Shown: one piece after another, positions 9,637 to 52,609 of the stretch | Layout of the letters: every line of letters starts with the position of its first letter | Numbering within the stretch: position 1 is the stretch's first letter | Sequence record: PQ327946.1 | DNA: 64,000 nt | Reading direction: 5' to 3' (one strand) | Source of the DNA: a phage | Notes under the pieces: generated by a model | Databases searched by the model: none | Seen by the model: the letters and a program-made list of their open reading frames with translations, nothing else | What the model was told of the DNA's origin: nothing | Made by a program: the position numbers and the translations under genes

Positions 9637-10014
9637 TTAATTACCAATTGTATATTTTGCTTTCAAAGTCCAGTCATCTTTCTGTTTAAAAGAGATAACA
9701 CGGAAGTTATTAGTCAGGCCAAACAGATCTTCACGAGCAGAGTCTTCAATAACAATCAATCCCCATTCTTCAAGCAACTGAGCAATCGAATCACGTCGCT
9801 GATAGTCTTCACCGTCAATATCAACCTGACGTCCGTCCATACGCAACATTTCTTTAAAGTGGACGATATAGTACTTACCTTGCTTTTGGAGGATATGACA
9901 AGACTGGTAAAGGACTTTATCTTTGTTATTAGCGATGCCCATACGAGTCAGAGTCTCTTTGACTTTCAGAAAATCTTCAGGGTTCTTCAATTTAATTTCA
10001 ATCATTTTTACCAT
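9637..10014 (-). CDS. regA: Translational repressor RegA
   Basis: 125 aa; synteny between 43 and 62; sequence resembles T4 RegA. Confidence 0.85.
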
Positions 10015-13035: not shown

Positions 13036-13752
13036 ATGAATTATAACTCAATATACGAAAAGCTTATCGCCAATGCTAAATCAAGAAGTTTAGATGGTTA
13101 TACAGAACGTCATCACATTATACCACAATGTTTAGGTGGAAGTGATGATGCTTTAAACTTAGTAGACTTAACACCGGAAGAACATTATTTGGCACATCAA
13201 CTGTTGGTCAAAATCCATCCAGATAATGCCTCTTTAATATATGCCGCTCGTATGATGACAATATCATCTCCTAAAGCAGATAGAAGCAAAAACAAATTAT
13301 TTGGATGGCTTCGACGTAAGAATCAAGAAGTTCAAAAGAACAAAGAATTCACTGCTGAAACCCGTAAGAAAATGTCTGAAGCCGCTTTAAAGAGACCAAA
13401 GATTACCTGTCCACATTGTAATAAATCTGGATACGTTTCTAACATGCGTCGTTGGCATTTCGACAACTGTAAGCATGGACCCAACAAGTGTGTACATACT
13501 ATACCTGAATCACAAAAGCAAAAAATAAAAGACGGGTTAAAGAATGTGGTTCACACTATAGTCCAATGCCGGTATTGTAACATGGAAGGTATAAAGTGTG
13601 TTATAGCAGCACATGAAAAATTCTGTAAATCAAATCCCAATAGAAAGAAAAAAGAGGACAAGAAAATTCAGTGTCCTCATTGTGATAAAATAGGAATCCC
13701 TGCTAATATGTATCGTTGGCATTTTGATAATTGTAAACACAAGCCTCATTAA
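13036..13752 (+). CDS. HNH homing endonuclease with tandem C-terminal zinc-finger repeats
   Basis: 238 aa; HHIIPQCLGG ... EEHYLAHQ HNH motif; two repeats CPHC.K.G...NM.RWHFDNCKH; opposite strand to all neighbours. Confidence 0.75.
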   Translation: MNYNSIYEKLIANAKSRSLDGYTERHHIIPQCLGGSDDALNLVDLTPEEHYLAHQLLVKIHPDNASLIYAARMMTISSPKADRSKNKLFGWLRRKNQEVQKNKEFTAETRKKMSEAALKRPKITCPHCNKSGYVSNMRRWHFDNCKHGPNKCVHTIPESQKQKIKDGLKNVVHTIVQCRYCNMEGIKCVIAAHEKFCKSNPNRKKKEDKKIQCPHCDKIGIPANMYRWHFDNCKHKPH

Positions 13753-19208: not shown

Positions 19209-19255
19209 TTTATTATCCAATGATAGAATTATACTCTGCTCTCAAGAGTTTGTAT
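19209..19255. repeat. 47-nt promoter/stem-loop cassette repeat, copy A
   Basis: 45 of 47 nt identical to 48662..48708. Confidence 0.7.
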
Positions 19256-19256
19256 A
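19228..19256 (-). promoter_or_regulatory. Early promoter (TATACA-N17-TATAAT) with inverted repeat around -10
   Basis: Minus strand TATACA, 17 nt, TATAAT; part of 47-nt repeat shared with 48662..48708. Confidence 0.55.
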
Positions 19257-19258
19257 CT

Positions 19259-19498
19259 CTATTTTTTAAGCATGAAAAGTAAGTAATTTGTATCACGTGG
19301 AGTAATATCAACACCCATATCAAAGATGCCTTTATAGATTGGGTATTTGTTTTCGGTTGTATCGAAGCTGAAACTATTTCCATCACATCTAACAGTAATA
19401 GCATCTGTTAAAATGTCATACTCAATCCTAACAATTGAATCCCCAATTTTAACGTCGAGGTGTTTTTTGAATTTGATAAAATCTAATTCTTGTTCCAT
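19259..19498 (-). CDS. Hypothetical protein
   Basis: 79 aa ORF. Confidence 0.4.
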   Translation of the reverse strand: MEQELDFIKFKKHLDVKIGDSIVRIEYDILTDAITVRCDGNSFSFDTTENKYPIYKGIFDMGVDITPRDTNYLLFMLKK

Positions 19499-19561
19499 GA
19501 TATTTTCCTCATTTTAAGACGATAGGAAGATAATAACATGTCTTCCTATCGTTGTACATTA

Positions 19562-25609: not shown

Positions 25610-25869
25610 TTAAAATATTCTCGCAGTTGGTCAAATCCACCAATATGACTTCCGTCAGGAGCAAACACTTGAGGCATAGTCAATCCGATTTGTGATTCAC
25701 GTCCAAGCTTAACCAGAAGCTCAGCAATTTTCTCATCATCAAAAACACCTTTTTCCGGCATAACATTAATGAATTCGAATGGCTGTTTCTTAACGGTCAG
25801 CAATCGTTTCGCATTATCGCAATAAATGCATTTATGAATAGTAGAGTCATAACCATACACTTTAAACAT
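25606..25869 (-). CDS. nrdC: Glutaredoxin-like protein (T4 thioredoxin NrdC)
   Basis: 87 aa from ATG at 25869; CIYC CxxC motif; matches T4 NrdC. Confidence 0.85.
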   Translation of the reverse strand: MFKVYGYDSTIHKCIYCDNAKRLLTVKKQPFEFINVMPEKGVFDDEKIAELLVKLGRESQIGLTMPQVFAPDGSHIGGFDQLREYFK

Positions 25870-26275
25870 TATTTTTCCTTTCATCGATTAAATATGCAAT
25901 GCCAAATACAATACATGTAATAAAACCTGTGATACAGATAGAAACCAACAACACTGTACCAAAGAACCAAATCAAGTTATCTTTAGTAGTTTGTTTGATA
26001 TCCATCTCACGAATTTCTATAGCTATCGTATCACCTTTATTCAGAAGCGTATAAAACGATGGCGATACACGCCTGTCAAAAACTCGTCCTTGCTCATCTT
26101 TATAGACTGCAATAAATTCTAATTTAGAATATTTTCCTGTAGATTGGCCTGAGATTAATTCCACTACCTCCACAGGAATTACTTTAGTTTCCATGTAAGT
26201 ATTCTGGCTGTTCCAAATGAATGGAATGATGGCAAAAACTAAAGCTGCAATAAAGCAACGAAGGCTATATCTCAT
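25862..26275 (-). CDS. Membrane protein
   Basis: 137 aa with N- and C-terminal hydrophobic helices. Confidence 0.5.
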   Translation of the reverse strand: MRYSLRCFIAALVFAIIPFIWNSQNTYMETKVIPVEVVELISGQSTGKYSKLEFIAVYKDEQGRVFDRRVSPSFYTLLNKGDTIAIEIREMDIKQTTKDNLIWFFGTVLLVSICITGFITCIVFGIAYLIDERKNNV

Positions 26276-26580
26276 TATAATGTTCTCTCAAATTTGTGGA
26301 AGCATTTACGGCATTTCAATTTCAAGTTATCAGTGGTCCAGTTAACCAGTTGGACTTGGATAGTTCCACATTCCGGACATGGATGTTTTGCTGCCGATTT
26401 GGCAGCATTTTCACGTCGTTCAACCATTTTCATTATTTCGTTCCATGCCGGAGGAACGAACTCTTCTTCACCGTGGATTTTATCTCGCTGAACAAATTCA
26501 ATCTTTGAACTATCGTCAATAAACTTAACCAAGCCATGATTAGTGCTCATATCAATATCCTCTAAAAGACGTAGTTTCAT
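26275..26580 (-). CDS. Zinc-ribbon protein
   Basis: 101 aa; CPECG ... CRKC pairs. Confidence 0.5.
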   Translation of the reverse strand: MKLRLLEDIDMSTNHGLVKFIDDSSKIEFVQRDKIHGEEEFVPPAWNEIMKMVERRENAAKSAAKHPCPECGTIQVQLVNWTTDNLKLKCRKCFHKFERTL

Positions 26581-27524
26581 TATAACACCTCAATGGCATT
26601 TCGTAAGCCATCCGCTTTCGCATTCAGAGCTTTTAACGATTTAGTTTGTTCTGCAATCTGGGCTTCGACTTCTTTCAGACGAGATTTGAGATATTCGCGT
26701 TCTTCTCTTAAGTTATCAACTTTTTCTGCTTTAGGCTCTTTAATAGGCTTATACTCATTAGGGTTCTTCAACTTAATTTGAATGCGAGAACTGTATAACA
26801 TTGAACCGTTATCTTCGGTTTCGCTGAACATTTCAACAACATCCATAGTCTGTAATATCATACGAAGTTTATAAGACAGCGAACTAACGGTTTTGTTGCG
26901 CTTATTAATTTCTTCGGCTTTCATGGTACCGAGATTACGTGAGTAGTAATAAGGAACCTGGATATCAATTGACAATGATGCGTTACCATTACCAGTTGGT
27001 TTGAATACTGCAGTAACCCAATCTTTAACATGAACTTTATTTGTACGACCGTCGCCGCCTGTGAATAATTTACGTGAATGTTTAAAAAGCATATTCACTT
27101 GGTTATTGAATTCACAAGCAAATTTATCAGCAAATTTAGTTTCAGGAATGGTAGATAACCAATCAGCTAAATAGGTCTTTTTAACATCGTTAACAATAGT
27201 AAATTCAACCAAATCGGTTATAGATGTCGCAGTTTTAATGAATCTCGGCTTCATAAAGTTTTTAATGTTATCGCGAGCTACAGTAGAAGATAACATACGA
27301 GAACGTTTAAACCATTGAAGCAAATTGCCCAACGAATGAGAATAAGCGTTCTGTGTATCTTTACAGATATGATTTTCTTGACCTGTGTATGTACCAAAAT
27401 CGCGAAGAATACCACTTACTACAACTCGGTGTGGAACATCAAATCCTAATGAACCGGAAGCACGTTGGGCATGAACGTTAGCGATAAGACCTGCAAAATA
27501 ATCAACATAATGTGAACGTGTCAT
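26580..27524 (-). CDS. Hypothetical protein with C-terminal coiled coil
   Basis: 314 aa ORF; ATG at 27524 with SD GAGG. Confidence 0.55.
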   Translation of the reverse strand: MTRSHYVDYFAGLIANVHAQRASGSLGFDVPHRVVVSGILRDFGTYTGQENHICKDTQNAYSHSLGNLLQWFKRSRMLSSTVARDNIKNFMKPRFIKTATSITDLVEFTIVNDVKKTYLADWLSTIPETKFADKFACEFNNQVNMLFKHSRKLFTGGDGRTNKVHVKDWVTAVFKPTGNGNASLSIDIQVPYYYSRNLGTMKAEEINKRNKTVSSLSYKLRMILQTMDVVEMFSETEDNGSMLYSSRIQIKLKNPNEYKPIKEPKAEKVDNLREEREYLKSRLKEVEAQIAEQTKSLKALNAKADGLRNAIEVL

Positions 27525-27552
27525 AATATTTTCCTCTCGTTAAGATAGAAAG

Positions 27553-27581
27553 ATTATACTCCAACCATCCTTGGTTGTAAA
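27553..27581 (-). promoter_or_regulatory. Early promoter TTTACA-N17-TATAAT with hairpin in spacer
   Basis: Minus strand TTTACA, 17-nt spacer with CAACCA/TGGTTG stem, TATAAT; 27 nt identical to 28546..28572. Confidence 0.6.
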
Positions 27582-27586
27582 CTGAT

Positions 27587-28519
27587 TTATGATTTTAATG
27601 CATTCATTGCGTTAAAAAGTTTAGAGTACTGCAACTGGAGCTTGGTAACTACTTGTTGAGCATCACGAAGCTTAGCTTGTGCTTTGTCAAGTTCAACAGA
27701 CAGTTGGTCCACAGTGCCTTTGATTTGATTATAATAGTAATCTTCGGCAGGAAGAAGACCGTTAGAGATTTCCAGTTTAGTCGACGGTGTGCCGTTAAAC
27801 ATAACAGGTTGTGCTGAAGCTGCATTAATCTTACCGATAGTTGGGGCGACAATAATTGACGCTTCGAACGTTGCATTTTCCTTTTTAAGATTTTGATAGT
27901 ATTCAGAGTCTTTGTGCCACCATGGCGCAGGAACCTTTTTACCAATAGATACACGAGCCTGGATAGCGATATGGCCCTTATTCTTGATAGGGTTGATAAT
28001 ATTAAGCTCACGAGAATAAATTGCTTTAATCTGGTGAATATTATCACCTAGCACTTCCAACGCTTGGTGGAATACACGAGCAACGTTATCATTCTTAGGT
28101 TTATACGTAAGAGTGAACTCGTTCTCACTGATAACCATGATTTCCAACTTATCGTAAGTATATTTCAAATGTTTCATGTTAATTGCTTGAGGACGAATAC
28201 GAGAAGCAATGGCCATCAGATTGTTAAGGTTATTCCGGAACTGCTTAGCGAAATATTGTCCTTCATCGCCAATACAAAAATTACGAAGTTTCTGTTTGGC
28301 TAATAAACGGCTGAACTCACCATTTTTAATGAACTCTTTAACGGGTGTGTTAGTAACGCATTCAAATTGAGTAAACTTACGAGAAGTAATCCCATAATAT
28401 GAACAGATTTCCTCAATCTCTTCAGGAGTCTTTACAGGCATACGGATAGGATTAGGACCTGGGGTATATGCGTTCGAGGTAAATTCTTTGATAAGTTCTC
28501 TACGTGTAATAGAAGCCAT
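27587..28519 (-). CDS. Hypothetical protein with C-terminal coiled coil
   Basis: 310 aa ORF. Confidence 0.55.
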   Translation of the reverse strand: MASITRRELIKEFTSNAYTPGPNPIRMPVKTPEEIEEICSYYGITSRKFTQFECVTNTPVKEFIKNGEFSRLLAKQKLRNFCIGDEGQYFAKQFRNNLNNLMAIASRIRPQAINMKHLKYTYDKLEIMVISENEFTLTYKPKNDNVARVFHQALEVLGDNIHQIKAIYSRELNIINPIKNKGHIAIQARVSIGKKVPAPWWHKDSEYYQNLKKENATFEASIIVAPTIGKINAASAQPVMFNGTPSTKLEISNGLLPAEDYYYNQIKGTVDQLSVELDKAQAKLRDAQQVVTKLQLQYSKLFNAMNALKS

Positions 28520-28545
28520 TTTATATTCCTCATGTTGAAAAATTT

Positions 28546-28574
28546 ATTATACTCCAACCATCCTTGGTTGTACA
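28546..28574 (-). promoter_or_regulatory. Early promoter TGTACA-N17-TATAAT with hairpin in spacer
   Basis: Same spacer and -10 block as 27553..27581. Confidence 0.55.
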
Positions 28575-29570
28575 TCATTCCTTAAGAAGTTTTACTACTT
28601 GAATAAGATTAGCTCGTTCTGTTTTATTTTTACCGTTTAAGCCTGCTAATCGTGAGATTTCATCATCAGTCTGTTGAATAGTTACATTAAGTTCGTTAAT
28701 CAAAGCTTCAAAGTATTTGATTTGCTCAGCATGTTTTGATTCAAATTTTTGAACCGGAATAACGTCTTGGTTTAGTTCATCAATAAGGTCTTTAAGAGCA
28801 TCTTCTTGGTTGATATCATATTCAACTTCTTTTATTTCTTCAACGAGCTCGTCTTTATATCTAACGTCTTTTAGTCCTGGTGCTGGTCCTGAAATCTCTT
28901 CTTTAAGAGTACAAACATATCCAATACGGTATCCAATACCGTCTCGCTTGATAACAACTTCGTCAATAAATCCACAATGTTTAAGACCGGAGCCGATTAG
29001 GTCAAAATATCCTTGACGTCGTCCTTCAAACGTTACACGAACTACTAAGACAGTTTTACCTGCAACCTTTTGAAGCTCACATTTATAAAAGTCTGTTGAA
29101 CCTGAATAACGTGGATGAGTTTTAAAGTTCATCTGACGATCTAGGCCCATTTGTAAGCGTGCTGATACGGCCATAAAACGTGTTTGGTTCTCGTTAAGAT
29201 GAGCAACAATCCATTTCAAAGGCATTTTACACTGTTCACGACCGAACAAATCAGTACGTCCTAGATTACGCAGGATGTTGTTAGAGTTAATCATCGACAG
29301 AACGTTAAGTTTATTCAGCGCGCTGAAGATTCCATCGGCCATTGATTTTCCGTAACCTTTACACGCTTTAATAAGCGCTCGCGGTAGATTAGTATAGATT
29401 TCAGACGGCATATGAAAATCAAATTTACTAGTCAGTAATTGATGAACTTGGATAGCAATTTGCTCATAATTAAGTGCTCTGCGATCATTATGGTCTTTAA
29501 ACCACACTTTAATCTGTGAAGCACATAAACCGTTAATTTCATGTTTTACCGCATCAGATGTAATGCTCAT
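28575..29570 (-). CDS. Hypothetical protein with C-terminal coiled coil
   Basis: 331 aa ORF. Confidence 0.55.
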   Translation of the reverse strand: MSITSDAVKHEINGLCASQIKVWFKDHNDRRALNYEQIAIQVHQLLTSKFDFHMPSEIYTNLPRALIKACKGYGKSMADGIFSALNKLNVLSMINSNNILRNLGRTDLFGREQCKMPLKWIVAHLNENQTRFMAVSARLQMGLDRQMNFKTHPRYSGSTDFYKCELQKVAGKTVLVVRVTFEGRRQGYFDLIGSGLKHCGFIDEVVIKRDGIGYRIGYVCTLKEEISGPAPGLKDVRYKDELVEEIKEVEYDINQEDALKDLIDELNQDVIPVQKFESKHAEQIKYFEALINELNVTIQQTDDEISRLAGLNGKNKTERANLIQVVKLLKE

Positions 29571-29632
29571 AACTATTTCCTCAGATTGAATTGGAACTCA
29601 AAACCATTATAACCCGTCCTTGGGTAAAGCGT

Positions 29633-30160
29633 TTATGCGTGAACCGTCTTTAAACGTTCTTCAAATTTCCGAAGAGTACTAATACGTTCTGCTTTCTGTT
29701 TTGTATAGTTTGCAATACGTTCTGAAGTGAGAGCGTATCGTTCGTTTACTGTTTCTTTCATGAAGTCAGGGATTTCACGAGAAGCTTTAATTTCATCAAA
29801 CTTATCGAGTACTGCCTGGTCTTCAGCGATTAAATTTTCGTACATCTCGATATCTTTCTTGATAAACTCGATATCTTCCTGGGTTACTTTGGATAAACGA
29901 GATGCTTTATCCTTTTTGTACTGCTCGTTAGTTTCACGAGACCAGAATAATGTACGTTTTTTGTTAGTGTTTTTGTAGACTTCCACAATTCCAACTGAAT
30001 CGATGATAGCAATCCAATTCCAGCGAGATTTGAAAATCTGACCTCCGTCCACGGTAATCTCGTTACCATAAGCAACGTCATTAAAGAACTTGCTTTGTGC
30101 TTCAGATTTAAATTTACCGTCGTTATAATTTACCAGGTTGAAAATATCTTTAGCGTTCAT
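29633..30160 (-). CDS. Hypothetical protein
   Basis: 175 aa ORF. Confidence 0.5.
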   Translation of the reverse strand: MNAKDIFNLVNYNDGKFKSEAQSKFFNDVAYGNEITVDGGQIFKSRWNWIAIIDSVGIVEVYKNTNKKRTLFWSRETNEQYKKDKASRLSKVTQEDIEFIKKDIEMYENLIAEDQAVLDKFDEIKASREIPDFMKETVNERYALTSERIANYTKQKAERISTLRKFEERLKTVHA

Positions 30161-30187
30161 GTTTTACCTCCAGTAGTTGATAGGTCT

Positions 30188-30216
30188 ATAATAACATAAC
30201 CATAGACCTTGTAAAC
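30188..30216 (-). promoter_or_regulatory. Early promoter GTTTAC-N17-TATTAT within inverted repeat
   Basis: Minus strand GTTTAC, 17 nt, TATTAT; AGGTCTAT/ATAGACCT inverted repeat. Confidence 0.5.
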
Positions 30217-30218
30217 AA

Positions 30219-30506
30219 CTAAAAGAAACTTTTTTCGGTATTTTTTCCACTGAACCAAACCGATTTCGGAATTTTCTGTAATTTTTCAGATTTAAGTTTC
30301 TCTTCCTGTTCTTTCTTATATGCATCCTTGTCGTACTGGAACAACTCTAAGGCATTCTTTTGTAGACGGTCTAAGGTAATTAAGGCTTTAGTTTTTCCTT
30401 TCAAGGAAGAGTCCTGGCGAACCTCCTCGCTATATTGCATCGTAGAACTAACCATACGATGAGCATAGAGTTCTACTGCGGCTTTAATTTTTTGCATAAA
30501 ATCCAT
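30219..30506 (-). CDS. Hypothetical protein
   Basis: 95 aa ORF. Confidence 0.4.
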   Translation of the reverse strand: MDFMQKIKAAVELYAHRMVSSTMQYSEEVRQDSSLKGKTKALITLDRLQKNALELFQYDKDAYKKEQEEKLKSEKLQKIPKSVWFSGKNTEKSFF

Positions 30507-33944: not shown

Positions 33945-34108
33945 TTTACCATACTCATTTCAATAAGATTCACTATGCCGTTTACCATGTTATAAGTAAA
34001 CATCGGATAATTGTATTGTACTACAACATAAGCGATAAGCAAAAGTTTCATTTTGTTCTCCATTTGTTTTGGTAGGATTACTATATCATAGTCCTACCAA
34101 GACGTAAA

Positions 34109-34324
34109 CTACCGATTATGTTTTAAAATGCTATAAAGAGCTTCTACTTGGCTTGCATCCAGGTAAATAACATCATCATCTTGCTCAATGGAAATCCCAC
34201 CAGTATTACCTGCAACAAAATTACATTCACATACTTCAACTGGGCGGTATACGTCACCAACTGGATGCTCAGGTTCCAGAACAATCACACCATTTTCAAA
34301 ATTACCACTTGGGTCATACAGCAT
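34109..34324 (-). CDS. Small protein, MLYD family paralog 1
   Basis: ATG at 34324; MLYDPSGNFENGVIVLEPE parallels neighbour. Confidence 0.45.
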   Translation of the reverse strand: MLYDPSGNFENGVIVLEPEHPVGDVYRPVEVCECNFVAGNTGGISIEQDDDVIYLDASQVEALYSILKHNR

Positions 34325-34823: not shown

Positions 34824-34833
34824 TGCTAAATGC

Positions 34834-34861
34834 AAAAAAGCCCCAACCGTAAGGAAGGGGC
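34834..34861 (-). terminator. Rho-independent terminator (repeat family copy 1)
   Basis: Minus strand GCCCCUUCCUUACGGUUGGGGC followed by U-run. Confidence 0.6.
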
Positions 34862-42385: not shown

Positions 42386-42844
42386 TTATAGGATGGTAGT
42401 GAGCACCTTATATAATGATTTGCCCATTACATATTCCCATTGAGAAGGTTTAATTAAAGCGAATGCATCAAATTCAGGAATCTGTCGTCCGTCTGGGAAT
42501 GTATGATAGGAATTACAAACACTGTTTCTGAATTGCTCGTGCTCTACAGGGATGGTATATAGGAACAGATGAATATTCTTATTGTCTGAGTAATGATGTT
42601 CACCTAGGTCTTTCAGGAAGGCAGGGTCATATTGTGTAAACCCAGTTTCTTCTTCGCATTCACGAATAGCGGCTTCGATAGGAGATTCACCGGGCTCGAC
42701 ACGACCTTTAGGAATATCCCACCGATGAGCTAAAGAACCTTTAGGACGAGAACCAGTTACACGCCCCATGAATAACTCTTTATCTTTTGTCATGAAGATA
42801 ATACCGGCTGATAGTTCTTTCACTTTATTTTTCTTACTCATCAT
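42386..42844 (-). CDS. nudE: Nudix hydrolase
   Basis: 152 aa; Nudix box GRVEPGESPIEAAIRECEEETG. Confidence 0.8.
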   Translation of the reverse strand: MMSKKNKVKELSAGIIFMTKDKELFMGRVTGSRPKGSLAHRWDIPKGRVEPGESPIEAAIRECEEETGFTQYDPAFLKDLGEHHYSDNKNIHLFLYTIPVEHEQFRNSVCNSYHTFPDGRQIPEFDAFALIKPSQWEYVMGKSLYKVLTTIL

Positions 42845-44551: not shown

Positions 44552-44579
44552 AATATTCTCCTCATGTTTTAATAGGACT

Positions 44580-44609
44580 ACTATAACATAGTCCTATAAT
44601 TGTGTAAAC
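44580..44609 (-). promoter_or_regulatory. Early promoter GTTTAC-N18-TATAGT with inverted repeat
   Basis: TAGGACTA/TAGTCCTA inverted repeat around the -10. Confidence 0.45.
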
Positions 44610-44622
44610 AGTTTTTGCGAAA

Positions 44623-45579
44623 TTATTTGAAAGGTTTTACCATATGAAAGTTTTGTTTGAAACGCTTGACGTAATCGTCGTGTCCTAAGCTTTGGTACAT
44701 ACTTACTACTTTGCTATAATTTTCCCAAGCGAACTCACGGAACCAACCGGAGGTGATGCTTGTGCAGACTTTTTCTAATGCCATCATGAAACTGGCTTCA
44801 GGGTTAATTTCAAAGTTATTAGGAATCTGAGAACGTTCTAACGCTAGTACACATGATTCTTCGTATACACCGGCCAATTTGACCATTTCCGGAAGTGATT
44901 CAAACTTCTCGCGTGAGGTCATTACTTCAGAACCGTCTTTCATATAAAACGTATAAGCCGGACGGTCTGTTAGTGCAATGGCTTCATGAATAGTATCATG
45001 GTCATATGTATAGATGTCATCTTTAAAGAACGCACTTTTAGAAGTGTCAAGAATCGGGTGAGCATAGTTCAAGGTTTCTTTCTGGCGTTTCAGCATAATT
45101 TCAGTAAGTTCATCGTTCAGTGTAACACCTTTACCACGAAGATACTGAATATGGTTCATAGTCTTTAAAAAGAATGGATTATTTTTCTTGAAACGATGAG
45201 ACATCTTAATTGCAAGACATATCTCAGGAGTTGCCCAGTAAAACCCGTTCAAACGGTCTTTAGTCAAATTTTTCTTGGCGTATTTTAAAAGGTCATAAGA
45301 AGACGTGAAATCTTCAGGAGTGAGTTCACCGACTAATTCACTGACATTAGTGATTGCCGGAACAATATATGCTTCAAAATGAGTTTCGCGTCCATTATGG
45401 AAGCATTTGAAAACTTGGACATCAGGGTTATCTTGATGAACATATACACCCATCATTTGATTTTTGAATGCATTCCAAGAACCTTGGTCTGCAATAAAGT
45501 CCCAGTCACTATTTTTGATAGCGTTAGAATCAATAAGACCGTGATAGTGAAGTGCACGAGAACCAATAACTAACATCAT
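44623..45579 (-). CDS. Hypothetical protein
   Basis: 318 aa ORF. Confidence 0.5.
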   Translation of the reverse strand: MMLVIGSRALHYHGLIDSNAIKNSDWDFIADQGSWNAFKNQMMGVYVHQDNPDVQVFKCFHNGRETHFEAYIVPAITNVSELVGELTPEDFTSSYDLLKYAKKNLTKDRLNGFYWATPEICLAIKMSHRFKKNNPFFLKTMNHIQYLRGKGVTLNDELTEIMLKRQKETLNYAHPILDTSKSAFFKDDIYTYDHDTIHEAIALTDRPAYTFYMKDGSEVMTSREKFESLPEMVKLAGVYEESCVLALERSQIPNNFEINPEASFMMALEKVCTSITSGWFREFAWENYSKVVSMYQSLGHDDYVKRFKQNFHMVKPFK

Positions 45580-45856: not shown

Positions 45857-45872
45857 TTAATTTGATAGGACT

Positions 45873-45902
45873 ACTATAACATAGCCCTATCTTGTTGTAA
45901 AC
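45873..45902 (-). promoter_or_regulatory. Early promoter GTTTAC-N18-TATAGT
   Basis: Same cassette type as 44580..44609. Confidence 0.45.
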
Positions 45903-45906
45903 TGTT

Positions 45907-46104
45907 TTAGCAAGAATAACTAGATGATACCCAGCCTTGAACAGTAATGCTATTATTGGATAATGAGATCGCGTCCTGGAGATTCAGACCTGCGTTATCT
46001 TCAATCCACAATGTAACTTCTTCGCGTTCTTCTGTTGCAATTTGGAACAGGTTTTCCAGAGCAGCTACTGCCGTACGTACAGCACAATCTAATTCACGAG
46101 ACAT
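45907..46104 (-). CDS. Small protein, tandem paralog family (C-terminal W-x-S-S-x-x-C)
   Basis: 65 aa ending GWVSSSYSC. Confidence 0.45.
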   Translation of the reverse strand: MSRELDCAVRTAVAALENLFQIATEEREEVTLWIEDNAGLNLQDAISLSNNSITVQGWVSSSYSC

Positions 46105-48661: not shown

Positions 48662-48708
48662 TTTATTATCCAATGAGAGCATTATACTCTGCTCTCAAGA
48701 GTTTGTAA
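48662..48708. repeat. 47-nt promoter/stem-loop cassette repeat, copy B
   Basis: 45 of 47 nt identical to 19209..19255. Confidence 0.7.
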
Positions 48709-48709
48709 A
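48681..48709 (-). promoter_or_regulatory. Early promoter TTTACA-N17-TATAAT with inverted repeat
   Basis: Part of 47-nt repeat shared with 19209..19255. Confidence 0.55.
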
Positions 48710-48937
48710 TTATTTTTTAATCAAATTGACATAAAACTCGGCGTCTTCCGGGTGCATGCCTTCGCAGTATTCTTCAACCATGAACTTCTTAACAGCTTCA
48801 TAAGGACCACTCAGATTAAGCTCAGTTGTCCAGAACTTGGAATCTTGGACTGAATCGATACGAACTTCAGGGTGGCGGTTGCGAATAACTTCTTCGGTGT
48901 ATTCATAATCAACGACATCAATACTAACTGTAGCCAT
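48710..48937 (-). CDS. Hypothetical small protein
   Basis: 75 aa ORF. Confidence 0.4.
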   Translation of the reverse strand: MATVSIDVVDYEYTEEVIRNRHPEVRIDSVQDSKFWTTELNLSGPYEAVKKFMVEEYCEGMHPEDAEFYVNLIKK

Positions 48938-49367: not shown

Positions 49368-49400
49368 ATCTTTATGAAATATTTTTATGCCCTAGATACC

Positions 49401-49427
49401 AAAAAGCCCCAACCGTAAGGAAGGGGC
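49401..49427 (-). terminator. Rho-independent terminator (repeat family copy 2)
   Basis: Same GCCCC...GGGGC hairpin plus U-run as 34834..34861. Confidence 0.6.
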
Positions 49428-49898: not shown

Positions 49899-49942
49899 GT
49901 TGCTTTTCCTAAGTTAATTAACTTATCTATTTATTATTATAC

Positions 49943-49971
49943 AAAAAAAGCCCCAACCTTTCGGAAGGGGC
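49943..49971 (-). terminator. Rho-independent terminator (repeat family copy 3)
   Basis: Minus strand GCCCCUUCCGAAAGGUUGGGGC plus U7. Confidence 0.6.
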
Positions 49972-52257: not shown

Positions 52258-52287
52258 TTTATTATCCTCTCATGTTTTGATAGGACT

Positions 52288-52317
52288 ACTATAACATAGT
52301 CCTATCAGCATGTAAAC
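52288..52317 (-). promoter_or_regulatory. Early promoter GTTTAC-N18-TATAGT with inverted repeat
   Basis: TAGGACTA/TAGTCCTA repeat around -10. Confidence 0.45.
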
Positions 52318-52321
52318 TACT

Positions 52322-52609
52322 TTACAGAAGAGTTTTTGCAATAATTTTAAGCTGAGCTACAGAAATATGCTTAGCTTTAAACAGTGTAGTCTCTTCAGCC
52401 GGAGAGATAACAATAGTAGCGCCGTCTTTCTTAGCAGACCATCCATCACCTAAGTAAACAGTACCTTTTACTTCTTCGCCGTCAACCAGACTAATCATCG
52501 GTTTACCCTCACGTCCTTTATTTGCTTTAATAACTTCGGAAGTAAGAGTTGCTTCAGTCAGAGTAGAAACGTTAGCAACAGGTGATATAAATTCTTTATA
52601 GGTTTTCAT
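52322..52609 (-). CDS. ipI: Internal protein I-like (capsid targeting sequence)
   Basis: 95 aa, same precursor length as T4 IPI as I recall it; N-terminus MKTYKEFI; directly upstream of 57B. Confidence 0.6.
   Translation of the reverse strand: MKTYKEFISPVANVSTLTEATLTSEVIKANKGREGKPMISLVDGEEVKGTVYLGDGWSAKKDGATIVISPAEETTLFKAKHISVAQLKIIAKTLL

Follow-up and report, generated by a model that had tools for sequence, protein, structure and literature searches.

Two neighbouring intergenic gaps in the phage sequence PQ327946.1 contain one and the same 27-nt sequence, and the locus raises the question of how the two gaps came to share it and what the shared sequence does there. The stretch of DNA analyzed in this study (hereafter the window) comprises 64,000 nucleotides. 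Its identity to RB69-like phages, members of the genus Mosigvirus, is 96-98%, and on this basis it is assigned to the RB69-like, T4-type Mosigvirus group; RB69 coordinates correspond to window coordinates plus approximately 23.4 kb.

Promoter-early stem-loop (PeSL) cassettes of T4-type phages have been described as an AT-rich region, a promoter similar to those for sigma-70, a stem-loop that lies mostly between the two promoter elements (-35 and -10) or over the -10, and a Shine-Dalgarno (SD) sequence with an ATG (Arbiol et al. 2010, PMC2839356). They are located between the ORFs of hyperplastic regions, beside indels that distinguish close relatives (PMC2839356), and the promoter consensus in T4 and PST is TTTACW-N17-TAYWAT (Comeau et al. 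2014, PMC4122927). In this study, we conclude that the two gaps very probably hold two copies of a PeSL-type early-promoter cassette, which serve as recombining direct repeats and carry a hairpin maintained by selection.

Gene context and occurrence of the repeat

The genes around the repeat are encoded on the minus strand, in the transcription order NrdC.8, NrdC.6-like, NrdC.5-like, NrdC.3, NrdC.2, NrdC.7 and nrdC. Orthology with T4 genes was assigned by an all-against-all protein comparison. The genes closest to the repeat are the following.

29633-30160, minus strand: NrdC.8 homologue, 83% identical to T4
28575-29570, minus strand: NrdC.6-like gene (w331), 29% identical to T4
27587-28519, minus strand: NrdC.5-like gene (w310), 310 aa, between the two copies of the repeat, 24% identical to T4 NrdC.5 (E = 4e-8)
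26580-27524, minus strand: NrdC.3 homologue (w314), 55% identical to T4

The NrdC.5-like protein, which is the cargo between the repeats, belongs to Pfam DUF7235 and phrog_2351; it is a distant NrdC.5 homologue, and its gene is of unknown function. Compared with T4, the block is devoid of nrdC.1 and nrdC.4, and nrdC.7 is relocated. Because the nrdC.x block is not the same in T4 and RB69, either in gene content or in gene order, it can be regarded as one of the hyperplastic regions of T4-type phages. The gap between the nrdC.5-like gene and nrdC.3 is 62 nt long and contains copy 1 of the repeat, and that between the nrdC.6-like and nrdC.5-like genes is 55 nt long and contains copy 2.

The sequence-only reading that drew attention to this locus had described an identical 27-nt cassette repeated about 1 kb apart, and had proposed a repeat search as a check. 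The search, run in the window, confirmed the description: ATTATACTCCAACCATCCTTGGTTGTA is an exact 27-nt repeat with two copies in the whole 64-kb window (27553-27579 and 28546-28572 in plus-strand coordinates), arranged as direct repeats 993 nt apart, and both copies are in intergenic gaps at gene boundaries. The repeat finder listed the pair as family D18. No further copy with up to 3 mismatches was found in the window, and none of 100 dinucleotide-preserving shuffles gave a match, so that none is expected by chance. The strand has to be corrected, since the functional reading of the cassette is that of the minus strand. In IMG/VR the exact 27-mer was present in 4 stretches only, and a scan of the same resource with the NrdC.8 protein gave 8 loci only.

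Anatomy of the two copies

When read along the minus strand, the gap of copy 1 is TAA-ATCAG-TTTACA-ACCAAGGATGGTTGGAG-TATAAT-CTTTCTATCTTAACGAGAGGAAAATATT-ATG and that of copy 2 is TGA-TGTACA-ACCAAGGATGGTTGGAG-TATAAT-AAATTTTTCAACATGAGGAATATAAA-ATG. The following elements can be recognized.

Copy 1, in the nrdC.5-like/nrdC.3 gap
27553..27579, minus strand: 27-nt core, comprising the hairpin-bearing spacer, the -10 and a portion of the -35
27576..27581, minus strand: -35 TTTACA, in which the preceding G gives the T4 early consensus GTTTAC
27562..27577, minus strand: hairpin CAACCA-AGGA-TGGTTG, within the spacer and overlapping the final 2 nt of the -35
27553..27558, minus strand: -10 TATAAT, with a predicted start at ~27546 from the usual spacing of ~7 nt
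27525..27552, minus strand: leader with the Shine-Dalgarno sequence GAGAGGAAAA (27529-27538), followed by the ATG of nrdC.3 (27522-27524)

Copy 2, in the nrdC.6-like/nrdC.5-like gap
28546..28572, minus strand: 27-nt core
28569..28574, minus strand: -35 TGTACA, a weaker match, immediately past the TGA stop codon of the upstream gene
28555..28570, minus strand: hairpin CAACCA-AGGA-TGGTTG
28546..28551, minus strand: -10 TATAAT, with a predicted start at ~28539-28541 and the SD GAGGAA at 28526-28531

All of the parts named in the earlier description, namely a -35, a 17-nt spacer with a CAACCA/TGGTTG hairpin and a -10 TATAAT, are present, but the -35 hexamers of the two copies are not identical. 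The repeat also supplies less of the -35 than had been thought, as it contains only the last four of the six bases of each hexamer. Copy 1 matches the sigma-70 hexamers at 11 of 12 positions and copy 2 at 10 of 12, both with the 17-nt spacer and on the coding strand. The 25 nt upstream of the promoter are 76% A+T in copy 1 and 72% in copy 2, which is weak evidence because the whole genome is A+T-rich. In their GTTTAC-type -35, TATAAT -10, A-rich upstream sequence and orientation with the early genes, the copies resemble T4 early promoters (Pe). Unlike typical strong T4 early promoters, which carry a TGn extended -10 (Hinton 2010 review, PMC2988021), neither copy has this motif. A simple census of the window counted 17 minus-strand and 4 plus-strand candidates for T4-type early promoters; the majority of the other candidates have a different inverted repeat, which spans the -10.

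From the match to the consensus, on which the case for promoter activity rests, we infer that each 27-mer forms the core of a sigma-70 early promoter of the T4 type. A literature search found no experimental data on transcription starts for this phage or for the matching T4 and RB69 sites. The RB69 counterparts have been predicted as the early promoters Pe:51019, Pe:52042, Pe:8947 and Pe:8387 (Nolan et al. 2006, PMC1524935). In that set, in which HMM scores range from 4.9 to 40.3, the orthologues of copies 1 and 2 score 27.8 and 18.2, and the two promoters of the dexA region 27.2 and 6.2 (PMC1524935). Hairpins or stem-loops are not mentioned in that report (Nolan et al. 2006, PMC1524935).

Covariation of the spacer hairpin

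On its own, the hairpin in the spacer, with a 6-bp stem and a 4-nt loop, has a predicted energy of -6.9 kcal/mol and a z-score of -1.6 to -1.7 against shuffles. This fold energy is unremarkable, and it is the covariation between relatives that makes the case for a real hairpin. When 17 distinct members of the family are aligned, 89% of the cells pair, compared with 57% after shuffling; five of the six stem pairs show changes in both arms, and the stem has a covariation score of 0.78, whereas shuffles give 0.18 and slid registers at most 0.35. There are about 11 different stems, all of which pair, while the loop is AAGGAT or AAGGAC (AAGGAY) in every family member from T4, RB69-like and other T4-type phages. 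To be included, these members had to have at least 3 pairs, a filter by which the inner pairs are inflated, and the outer two pairs and an unfiltered scan are therefore the fairer evidence. The unfiltered pattern scan of IMG/VR required only TTTA...CAAGGATG...TATAAT and no stem. Hits were assigned to T4-type phages by way of known genomes, contigs of ~155-172 kb and matching flanks; they had 4-8 pairs, against 2-3 pairs in the chance hits, which formed the majority and served as an internal control. A stem that covaries around a fixed AAGGAY loop indicates that the hairpin is a selected structure. No Rfam covariance model matched window positions 27300-28800 at E <= 1.

The same near-palindrome could be read as an operator, at which a dimeric DNA-binding protein, encoded by the phage or the host, would occupy the space between the -35 and -10 hexamers and shut the early promoters; the two copies would then be identical owing to recognition of their sequence by this protein. 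The 16-bp element is placed exactly where repressors commonly act, its central AAGGAY is invariant across genera, and the shut-off of T4 early promoters has been described as still unexplained (Hinton 2010 review, PMC2988021). However, there are about 11 stems, and five of the six pairs have changed in both arms; such a pattern is characteristic of a folded single strand rather than of base-specific contacts. In addition, the conserved centre AAGGAY is not palindromic, and within the family the hairpin is separated from the -10 by anything from 0 to 3 nt. Because the arms keep their complementarity and not their sequence, we consider a role as an operator to be highly improbable.

Another function that has been attributed to such structures is termination. 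In a composite terminator-promoter, the hairpin would be the terminator half and would chiefly stop transcription coming from the upstream gene. One PeSL stem-loop of RB49/phi1 lowered the expression of a reporter to roughly the same extent as did the rrnB T1 terminator (PMC2839356), and the hairpin lies 2-12 nt past the upstream stop codon. Wobble pairs among the family members (3 independent G-T cases against 1 A-C case) slightly favour pairing in the sense strand, though they are too few to decide. Against this, the 6-bp stem of -6.9 kcal/mol is followed by GAGUAUAAU, which contains no U-run. The terminator scan omitted the hairpin yet found true terminators nearby, and the real G+C-rich terminators followed by promoters in the window, such as those at 34826-34861 and 49392-49427 (family D7), look quite different. 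Without a U-tract after the hairpin, the terminator half of the PeSL definition has no sequence support here. A classical terminator is thus not supported by the sequence, and it seems unlikely that the hairpin chiefly serves to end upstream transcripts.

Three narrower candidates were considered and rejected. An intrinsic terminator at the hairpin would have 3 G-C pairs among the six of the stem and GAGUAUAAU instead of a U-run as its tail, and it is absent from the list of the terminator scan. Folds of the two leaders that would mask the SD on read-through RNA were predicted by ViennaRNA and were not significant (z = -0.66 and -0.81). A mini-ORF, AAGGATGGTTGGAGTATAA (ATG-GTT-GGA-GTA-TAA), has an SD-like AAGG abutting its ATG, and its frame is not kept in the T4 variants.

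Other family members and a second cassette

One gene further upstream, a diverged third member of the family is located.

29606..29628, minus strand: TTTAC, hairpin ACCC-AAGGAC-GGGT and TATAAT, downstream of nrdC.8

In its sequence, TTTAC-CC-AAGGAC-GG-GT-TATAAT, the elements TTTAC and TATAAT are closer together than a canonical sigma-70 promoter allows, which gives it the look of a degraded or 'half' cassette. Its orthologue in T4 is the cassette that lies between nrdC.8 and nrdC.7, and T4 homology resumes at window position 29602. T4 itself has the same type of element upstream of nrdC.3, nrdC.4 and nrdC.7, each with the loop AAGGAT and all with different stems. A typical Mosigvirus genome has the cassette family in 3-4 places, including the dexA-motB region. 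In RB69, WFK and many others, a cassette copy identical over ~50 nt lies between dexA and motB.1, and one gap beyond it there is a variant with the stem CATCC/GGATG. The part CTTTCTATCTTA of the copy 1 leader is also present in the dexA-region copy of the relatives, which is how the identity comes to extend over ~50 nt.

These distributions bear on the possibility that the repeat is the relic of an old tandem duplication of genes of the nrdC.3/.4/.5/.6 type, with the promoters kept identical by strong purifying selection and not by exchange. The genes of the block all encode proteins of ~300-340 aa, and faint similarities are detectable between NrdC.3 and NrdC.4 of T4 (E = 0.012) and between NrdC.4 and the NrdC.3 of the window (E = 0.003); T4 too has hairpins of the same kind between several nrdC.x genes. 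However, the three flanking proteins are without similarity to each other in BLASTP and belong to different PHROG families, and genes whose products have diverged so far should not keep 27 of 27 bases of a spacer, which other promoters in the window fill quite differently. In the relatives the cassette is also identical over ~50 nt between dexA and motB.1, which are unrelated, and the orthologous T4 cassettes differ from one another in stem sequence. An origin by tandem duplication is therefore very unlikely. Exchange between the copies, rather than constraint on the promoters alone, accounts for an otherwise free spacer being identical in two places.

A second cassette had been described as a 47-nt sequence repeated at 19209..19255 and 48662..48708. 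The pair (family D8) is similar but not exact, as 44 of the 47 positions are identical, with 89% identity over 57 nt.

19209..19262, minus strand: copy A, upstream of the gene 55.2 homologue, with -35 TATACA (19251-19256) and -10 TATAAT (19228-19233)
48662..48718, minus strand: copy B, upstream of the e.6 homologue, with -35 TTTACA (48704-48709) and -10 TATAAT (48681-48686)

In copy B, the hairpin GAGAGC...GCTCTC (48675-48696) extends across the -10 and has a predicted energy of -13.8 kcal/mol (z -3.5). In copy A, the 5' arm GAGAGC is unpaired with the 3' arm TCTATC. The corresponding arms of RB69 match at both sites: the copy preceding 55.2 has GAGAGA/TCTCTC and the copy preceding e.6 has GAGAGC/GCTCTC. 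The 55.2 copy of the window, with its e.6-type 5' arm and the 3' arm TCTATC, looks as if a conversion patch had disrupted its stem.

Gene presence and absence at the repeat

In the phage collection, the nrdC.5-like gene is present with two cassettes in 133 phage records. Another 21 records have one hybrid cassette, and what they are missing is exactly the 993-bp unit (the gene and one cassette), with the crossover inside the 27-mer. In WFL6982, JM17 and F2, for example, the 310-aa gene is absent and the single cassette consists of the upstream flank of copy 2 (GGAATGA-TGTACA), the 27-nt core and the downstream flank of copy 1. A 361-nt query across the F2 junction was contiguous in the 21 records; in the two-cassette records (the best 19 of the other 135), the match ended at query position 206, which is the far end of the core. 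From these junctions, it appears that the 21 relatives lost, or never gained, the nrdC.5-like gene through a crossover inside the repeat.

Three genomes with a single cassette were examined and do not share a nearest relative, as the upstream flank of each is closest to a different two-cassette genome. The identity also shifts at the cassette, from 97-98% upstream to 90-96% downstream. Different nearest relatives and a step in divergence would fit with repeated events or with free recombination at this site. The suggestion that such cassettes drive the shuffling of modules, to be checked in related phages, is upheld by the 21 records whose junction is inside the 27-nt repeat. The word 'mobile', which had been applied to the cassettes, is better replaced by 'recombination substrate'.

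A similar exchange may have occurred at the motB-region site. In AV110, this site has TGTACA and CAACC/GGTTG, that is, the core of copy 2. At the same site, the IMG/VR contig L009 and RB69 have TGTACA with CATCC/GGATG, and WFK has TTTACA with CATCC/GGATG. The state of AV110 might be due either to a short conversion tract or to a double compensatory change. Among the Mosigvirus sequences compared, the core varied only by a T/C difference in the loop in L130 and L007 and by the AV110 patch.

Discussion

The cassette proposed here consists, in order, of an A+T-rich stretch, a -35 of (G)TTTACA or TGTACA, a 17-bp spacer with a 6-bp hairpin and AGGA loop, TATAAT, a leader of ~25 nt, an SD and an ATG. 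Judging from the consensus, the sigma-70 RNA polymerase of the host would initiate ~7 nt beyond each -10 as soon as the cell is infected, and nrdC.3 and the nrdC.5-like gene would each obtain an early transcript of their own. With direct repeats placed 993 nt from each other, recombination or copy-choice between the copies takes out the gene that separates them, together with one cassette. The reverse event would insert a unit of gene and cassette, and the route might be homologous recombination, copy-choice or the integration of a circular unit (minicircle). Patches of sequence also appear to move between cassette copies, including those of the hyperplastic dexA-motB region of the relatives.

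The resemblance to PeSL cassettes that had been noticed in the sequence holds for layout, position at gene boundaries, copy number and association with indels. As in the published cassettes, an early promoter with a 17-nt spacer has its stem-loop between the -35 and -10 elements and is followed by an SD and an ATG; it lies between small non-essential ORFs, and the direct repeats flank a gene that is present in some close relatives and absent from others, with crossovers that fall inside the cassette. Both copies fit the T4/PST consensus at the -10, but only copy 1 does so at the -35. There are also differences in the stem-loop. The stem in the window is A/T-rich with a fixed AAGGAY loop, whereas RB49/phi1 have a G(n)-loop-C(n) stem and PST/T4 an AGNA-loop-TCNT stem. 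The stem-loops of PST are described as just upstream of the promoter, in contrast to the position inside the spacer in the window (PMC4122927). Moreover, the hairpin of the window shows no sign of terminator capacity. RB69 and the nrdC and motB regions are not mentioned in the text of PMC2839356 and PMC4122927. These comparisons support the view that the locus is a clear new example of a PeSL, from a class that was published in 2010 and 2014 and in a group for which promoter predictions in RB69 date from 2006.

Recombination or replication slippage is known to delete DNA that is bounded by short direct repeats (Albertini et al. 1982, as cited in PMC4122927). The present case is alike in that a 27-bp direct repeat flanks the unit of 993 bp and a single hybrid repeat is left in the deletion product. 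It differs in that the repeats in the window are regulatory units which occur at several loci. As functional regulatory units, the repeats would leave every product with a working promoter for the gene downstream; short repeats of random sequence would offer no such guarantee.

The role of the hairpin is the least certain step of the proposed mechanism. As it is located upstream of the predicted start site of its own cassette, it would occur in RNA only on transcripts that read through from upstream promoters. On such read-through RNA, it would most likely be an element for 3'-end formation, stability or processing, or a weak attenuator between cistrons. Several T4 genes are organized in a related manner: in the lysozyme gene e, gene 49, soc and I-TevI, the proximal promoter, which is late or middle, is inside a hairpin that forms only on read-through RNA and sequesters the ribosome-binding site. 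The cassettes of the window are similar in that the structure is present only on upstream-started transcripts, so that two RNA species may behave differently. Unlike in those genes, the SD is left outside the hairpin, which lies ~30 nt upstream of it.

It is also conceivable, although we put this forward only tentatively, that the AAGGAY hairpin is a distinct selected element acting solely on read-through RNA, or in single-stranded DNA, and not a by-product of homology between cassettes. The loop might then present an SD-like sequence to ribosomes, or the hairpin might position the adjacent GGAG, which in copy 1 is directly 3' of the stem, for cleavage by RegB; upstream-started and locally started RNAs would meet different fates. 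Alternatively, the hairpin might form in single-stranded DNA and stimulate copy-choice recombination at the cassette. A covarying hairpin with a fixed loop thus poses a small testable question, namely what a structure inside a promoter spacer does.

The finding leaves current understanding unchanged. With the RB69-like Mosigvirus group, it adds a third T-even lineage to those that support the PeSL model, and it provides a clean natural example of the gain and loss of an accessory gene in T4-type phages, in which the 27-bp promoter core would serve as a portable patch of homology and every product of recombination would retain the promoter of the downstream gene.

Discussion

We compared window positions 26580-29570 and their flanks with six RB69-like phages (L002, L003, L006, L012, L130 and L136). 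Identity among the RB69-like phages is 97-98% in the 900 nt upstream of the 27-nt cassette (nrdC.6-like) and 90-96% in the 900 nt downstream of it (nrdC.3). This step in divergence across the cassette suggests that a recombination boundary is located there.

The position of two genes differs from that in T4. The NrdC.7 homologue directly adjoins nrdC instead of lying between nrdC.6 and nrdC.8, and the Frd.3 homologue adjoins e.6. Each relocated gene lies beside a cassette-type promoter:
25862-26275, NrdC.7 homologue
48710-48937, Frd.3 homologue

In many GenBank records the nrdC.2 to nrdC.10 homologues are labeled 'thioredoxin', a label that appears to have been propagated from the gene name nrdC. 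The nrdC.x proteins of the window match DUF7235 or PHROG families without an assigned function, not thioredoxin.

The promoter upstream of the gene 55.2 homologue, a member of the second cassette family, looks like a conversion patch derived from the e.6 promoter, with the stem broken by the patch. At window 19228-19256 the 5' arm is GAGAGC, as in the e.6 type, and does not match the 3' arm, TCTATC; at the equivalent site in RB69 (42436-42500) the arms, GAGAGA and TCTCTC, are matched.

The hairpin of the 27-nt cassette is very different in appearance from a G+C-rich stem-loop with a T-run (minus-strand sequence GCCCCTTCC-TTACGG-TTGGGGC-TTTTT), which is present in the same window in three near-identical copies (75-92% identity):
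34826-34861, stem-loop and T-run
49392-49427, stem-loop and T-run
49936-49971, stem-loop and T-run
An early-type promoter lies directly downstream of all three, and these units are true terminator-promoter composites.

Among the early promoters of the window, the dominant family carries an inverted repeat of 8-12 bp with one arm on either side of the -10 element (for example, ATAGGACTA-TGTTATAGT-AGTCCTAT). The spacer holds the 5' arm, the 3' arm lies around the start site, and the fold energies are predicted to lie between -12 and -18 kcal/mol. Members of this family lie at:
52276-52333, early promoter
45861-45918, early promoter
44568-44625, early promoter
34068-34125, early promoter
30179-30235, early promoter
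19520-19558, early promoter

In T4, the promoter that precedes nrdC.8, in the nrdC.9/nrdC.8 gap (9887-9946), has within its spacer the sequence GTTCCTC, the complement of GAGGAAC, which is the ribosome-binding site of nrdC.8 itself. This site could therefore be masked on read-through RNA only. In the window, the nrdC.8 promoter has a AGGTCTAT/ATAGACCT repeat in place of the T4 element.

A separate direct repeat of 77 nt (73% identity) occurs at 13399-13475 and 13663-13739, with the copies 264 nt apart. Read by eye, the DNA appears to encode a putative repeated Cys-rich peptide, roughly CPHC...RRWHFDNCK.

Two short metagenomic IMG/VR contigs (about 10 kb) carry motifs of the 27-nt cassette type with 7-bp stems:
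L014 9610-9634, TTTA-ATAACCA-AGGA-TGGTTAT-AAT
L077 4714-4742, TTTAC-TTCA-AGGA-TGAAG-TATAGTATAAT
The spacer-hairpin element may therefore also occur outside T4, the RB69-like phages and the other large T4-type contigs covered by this analysis.
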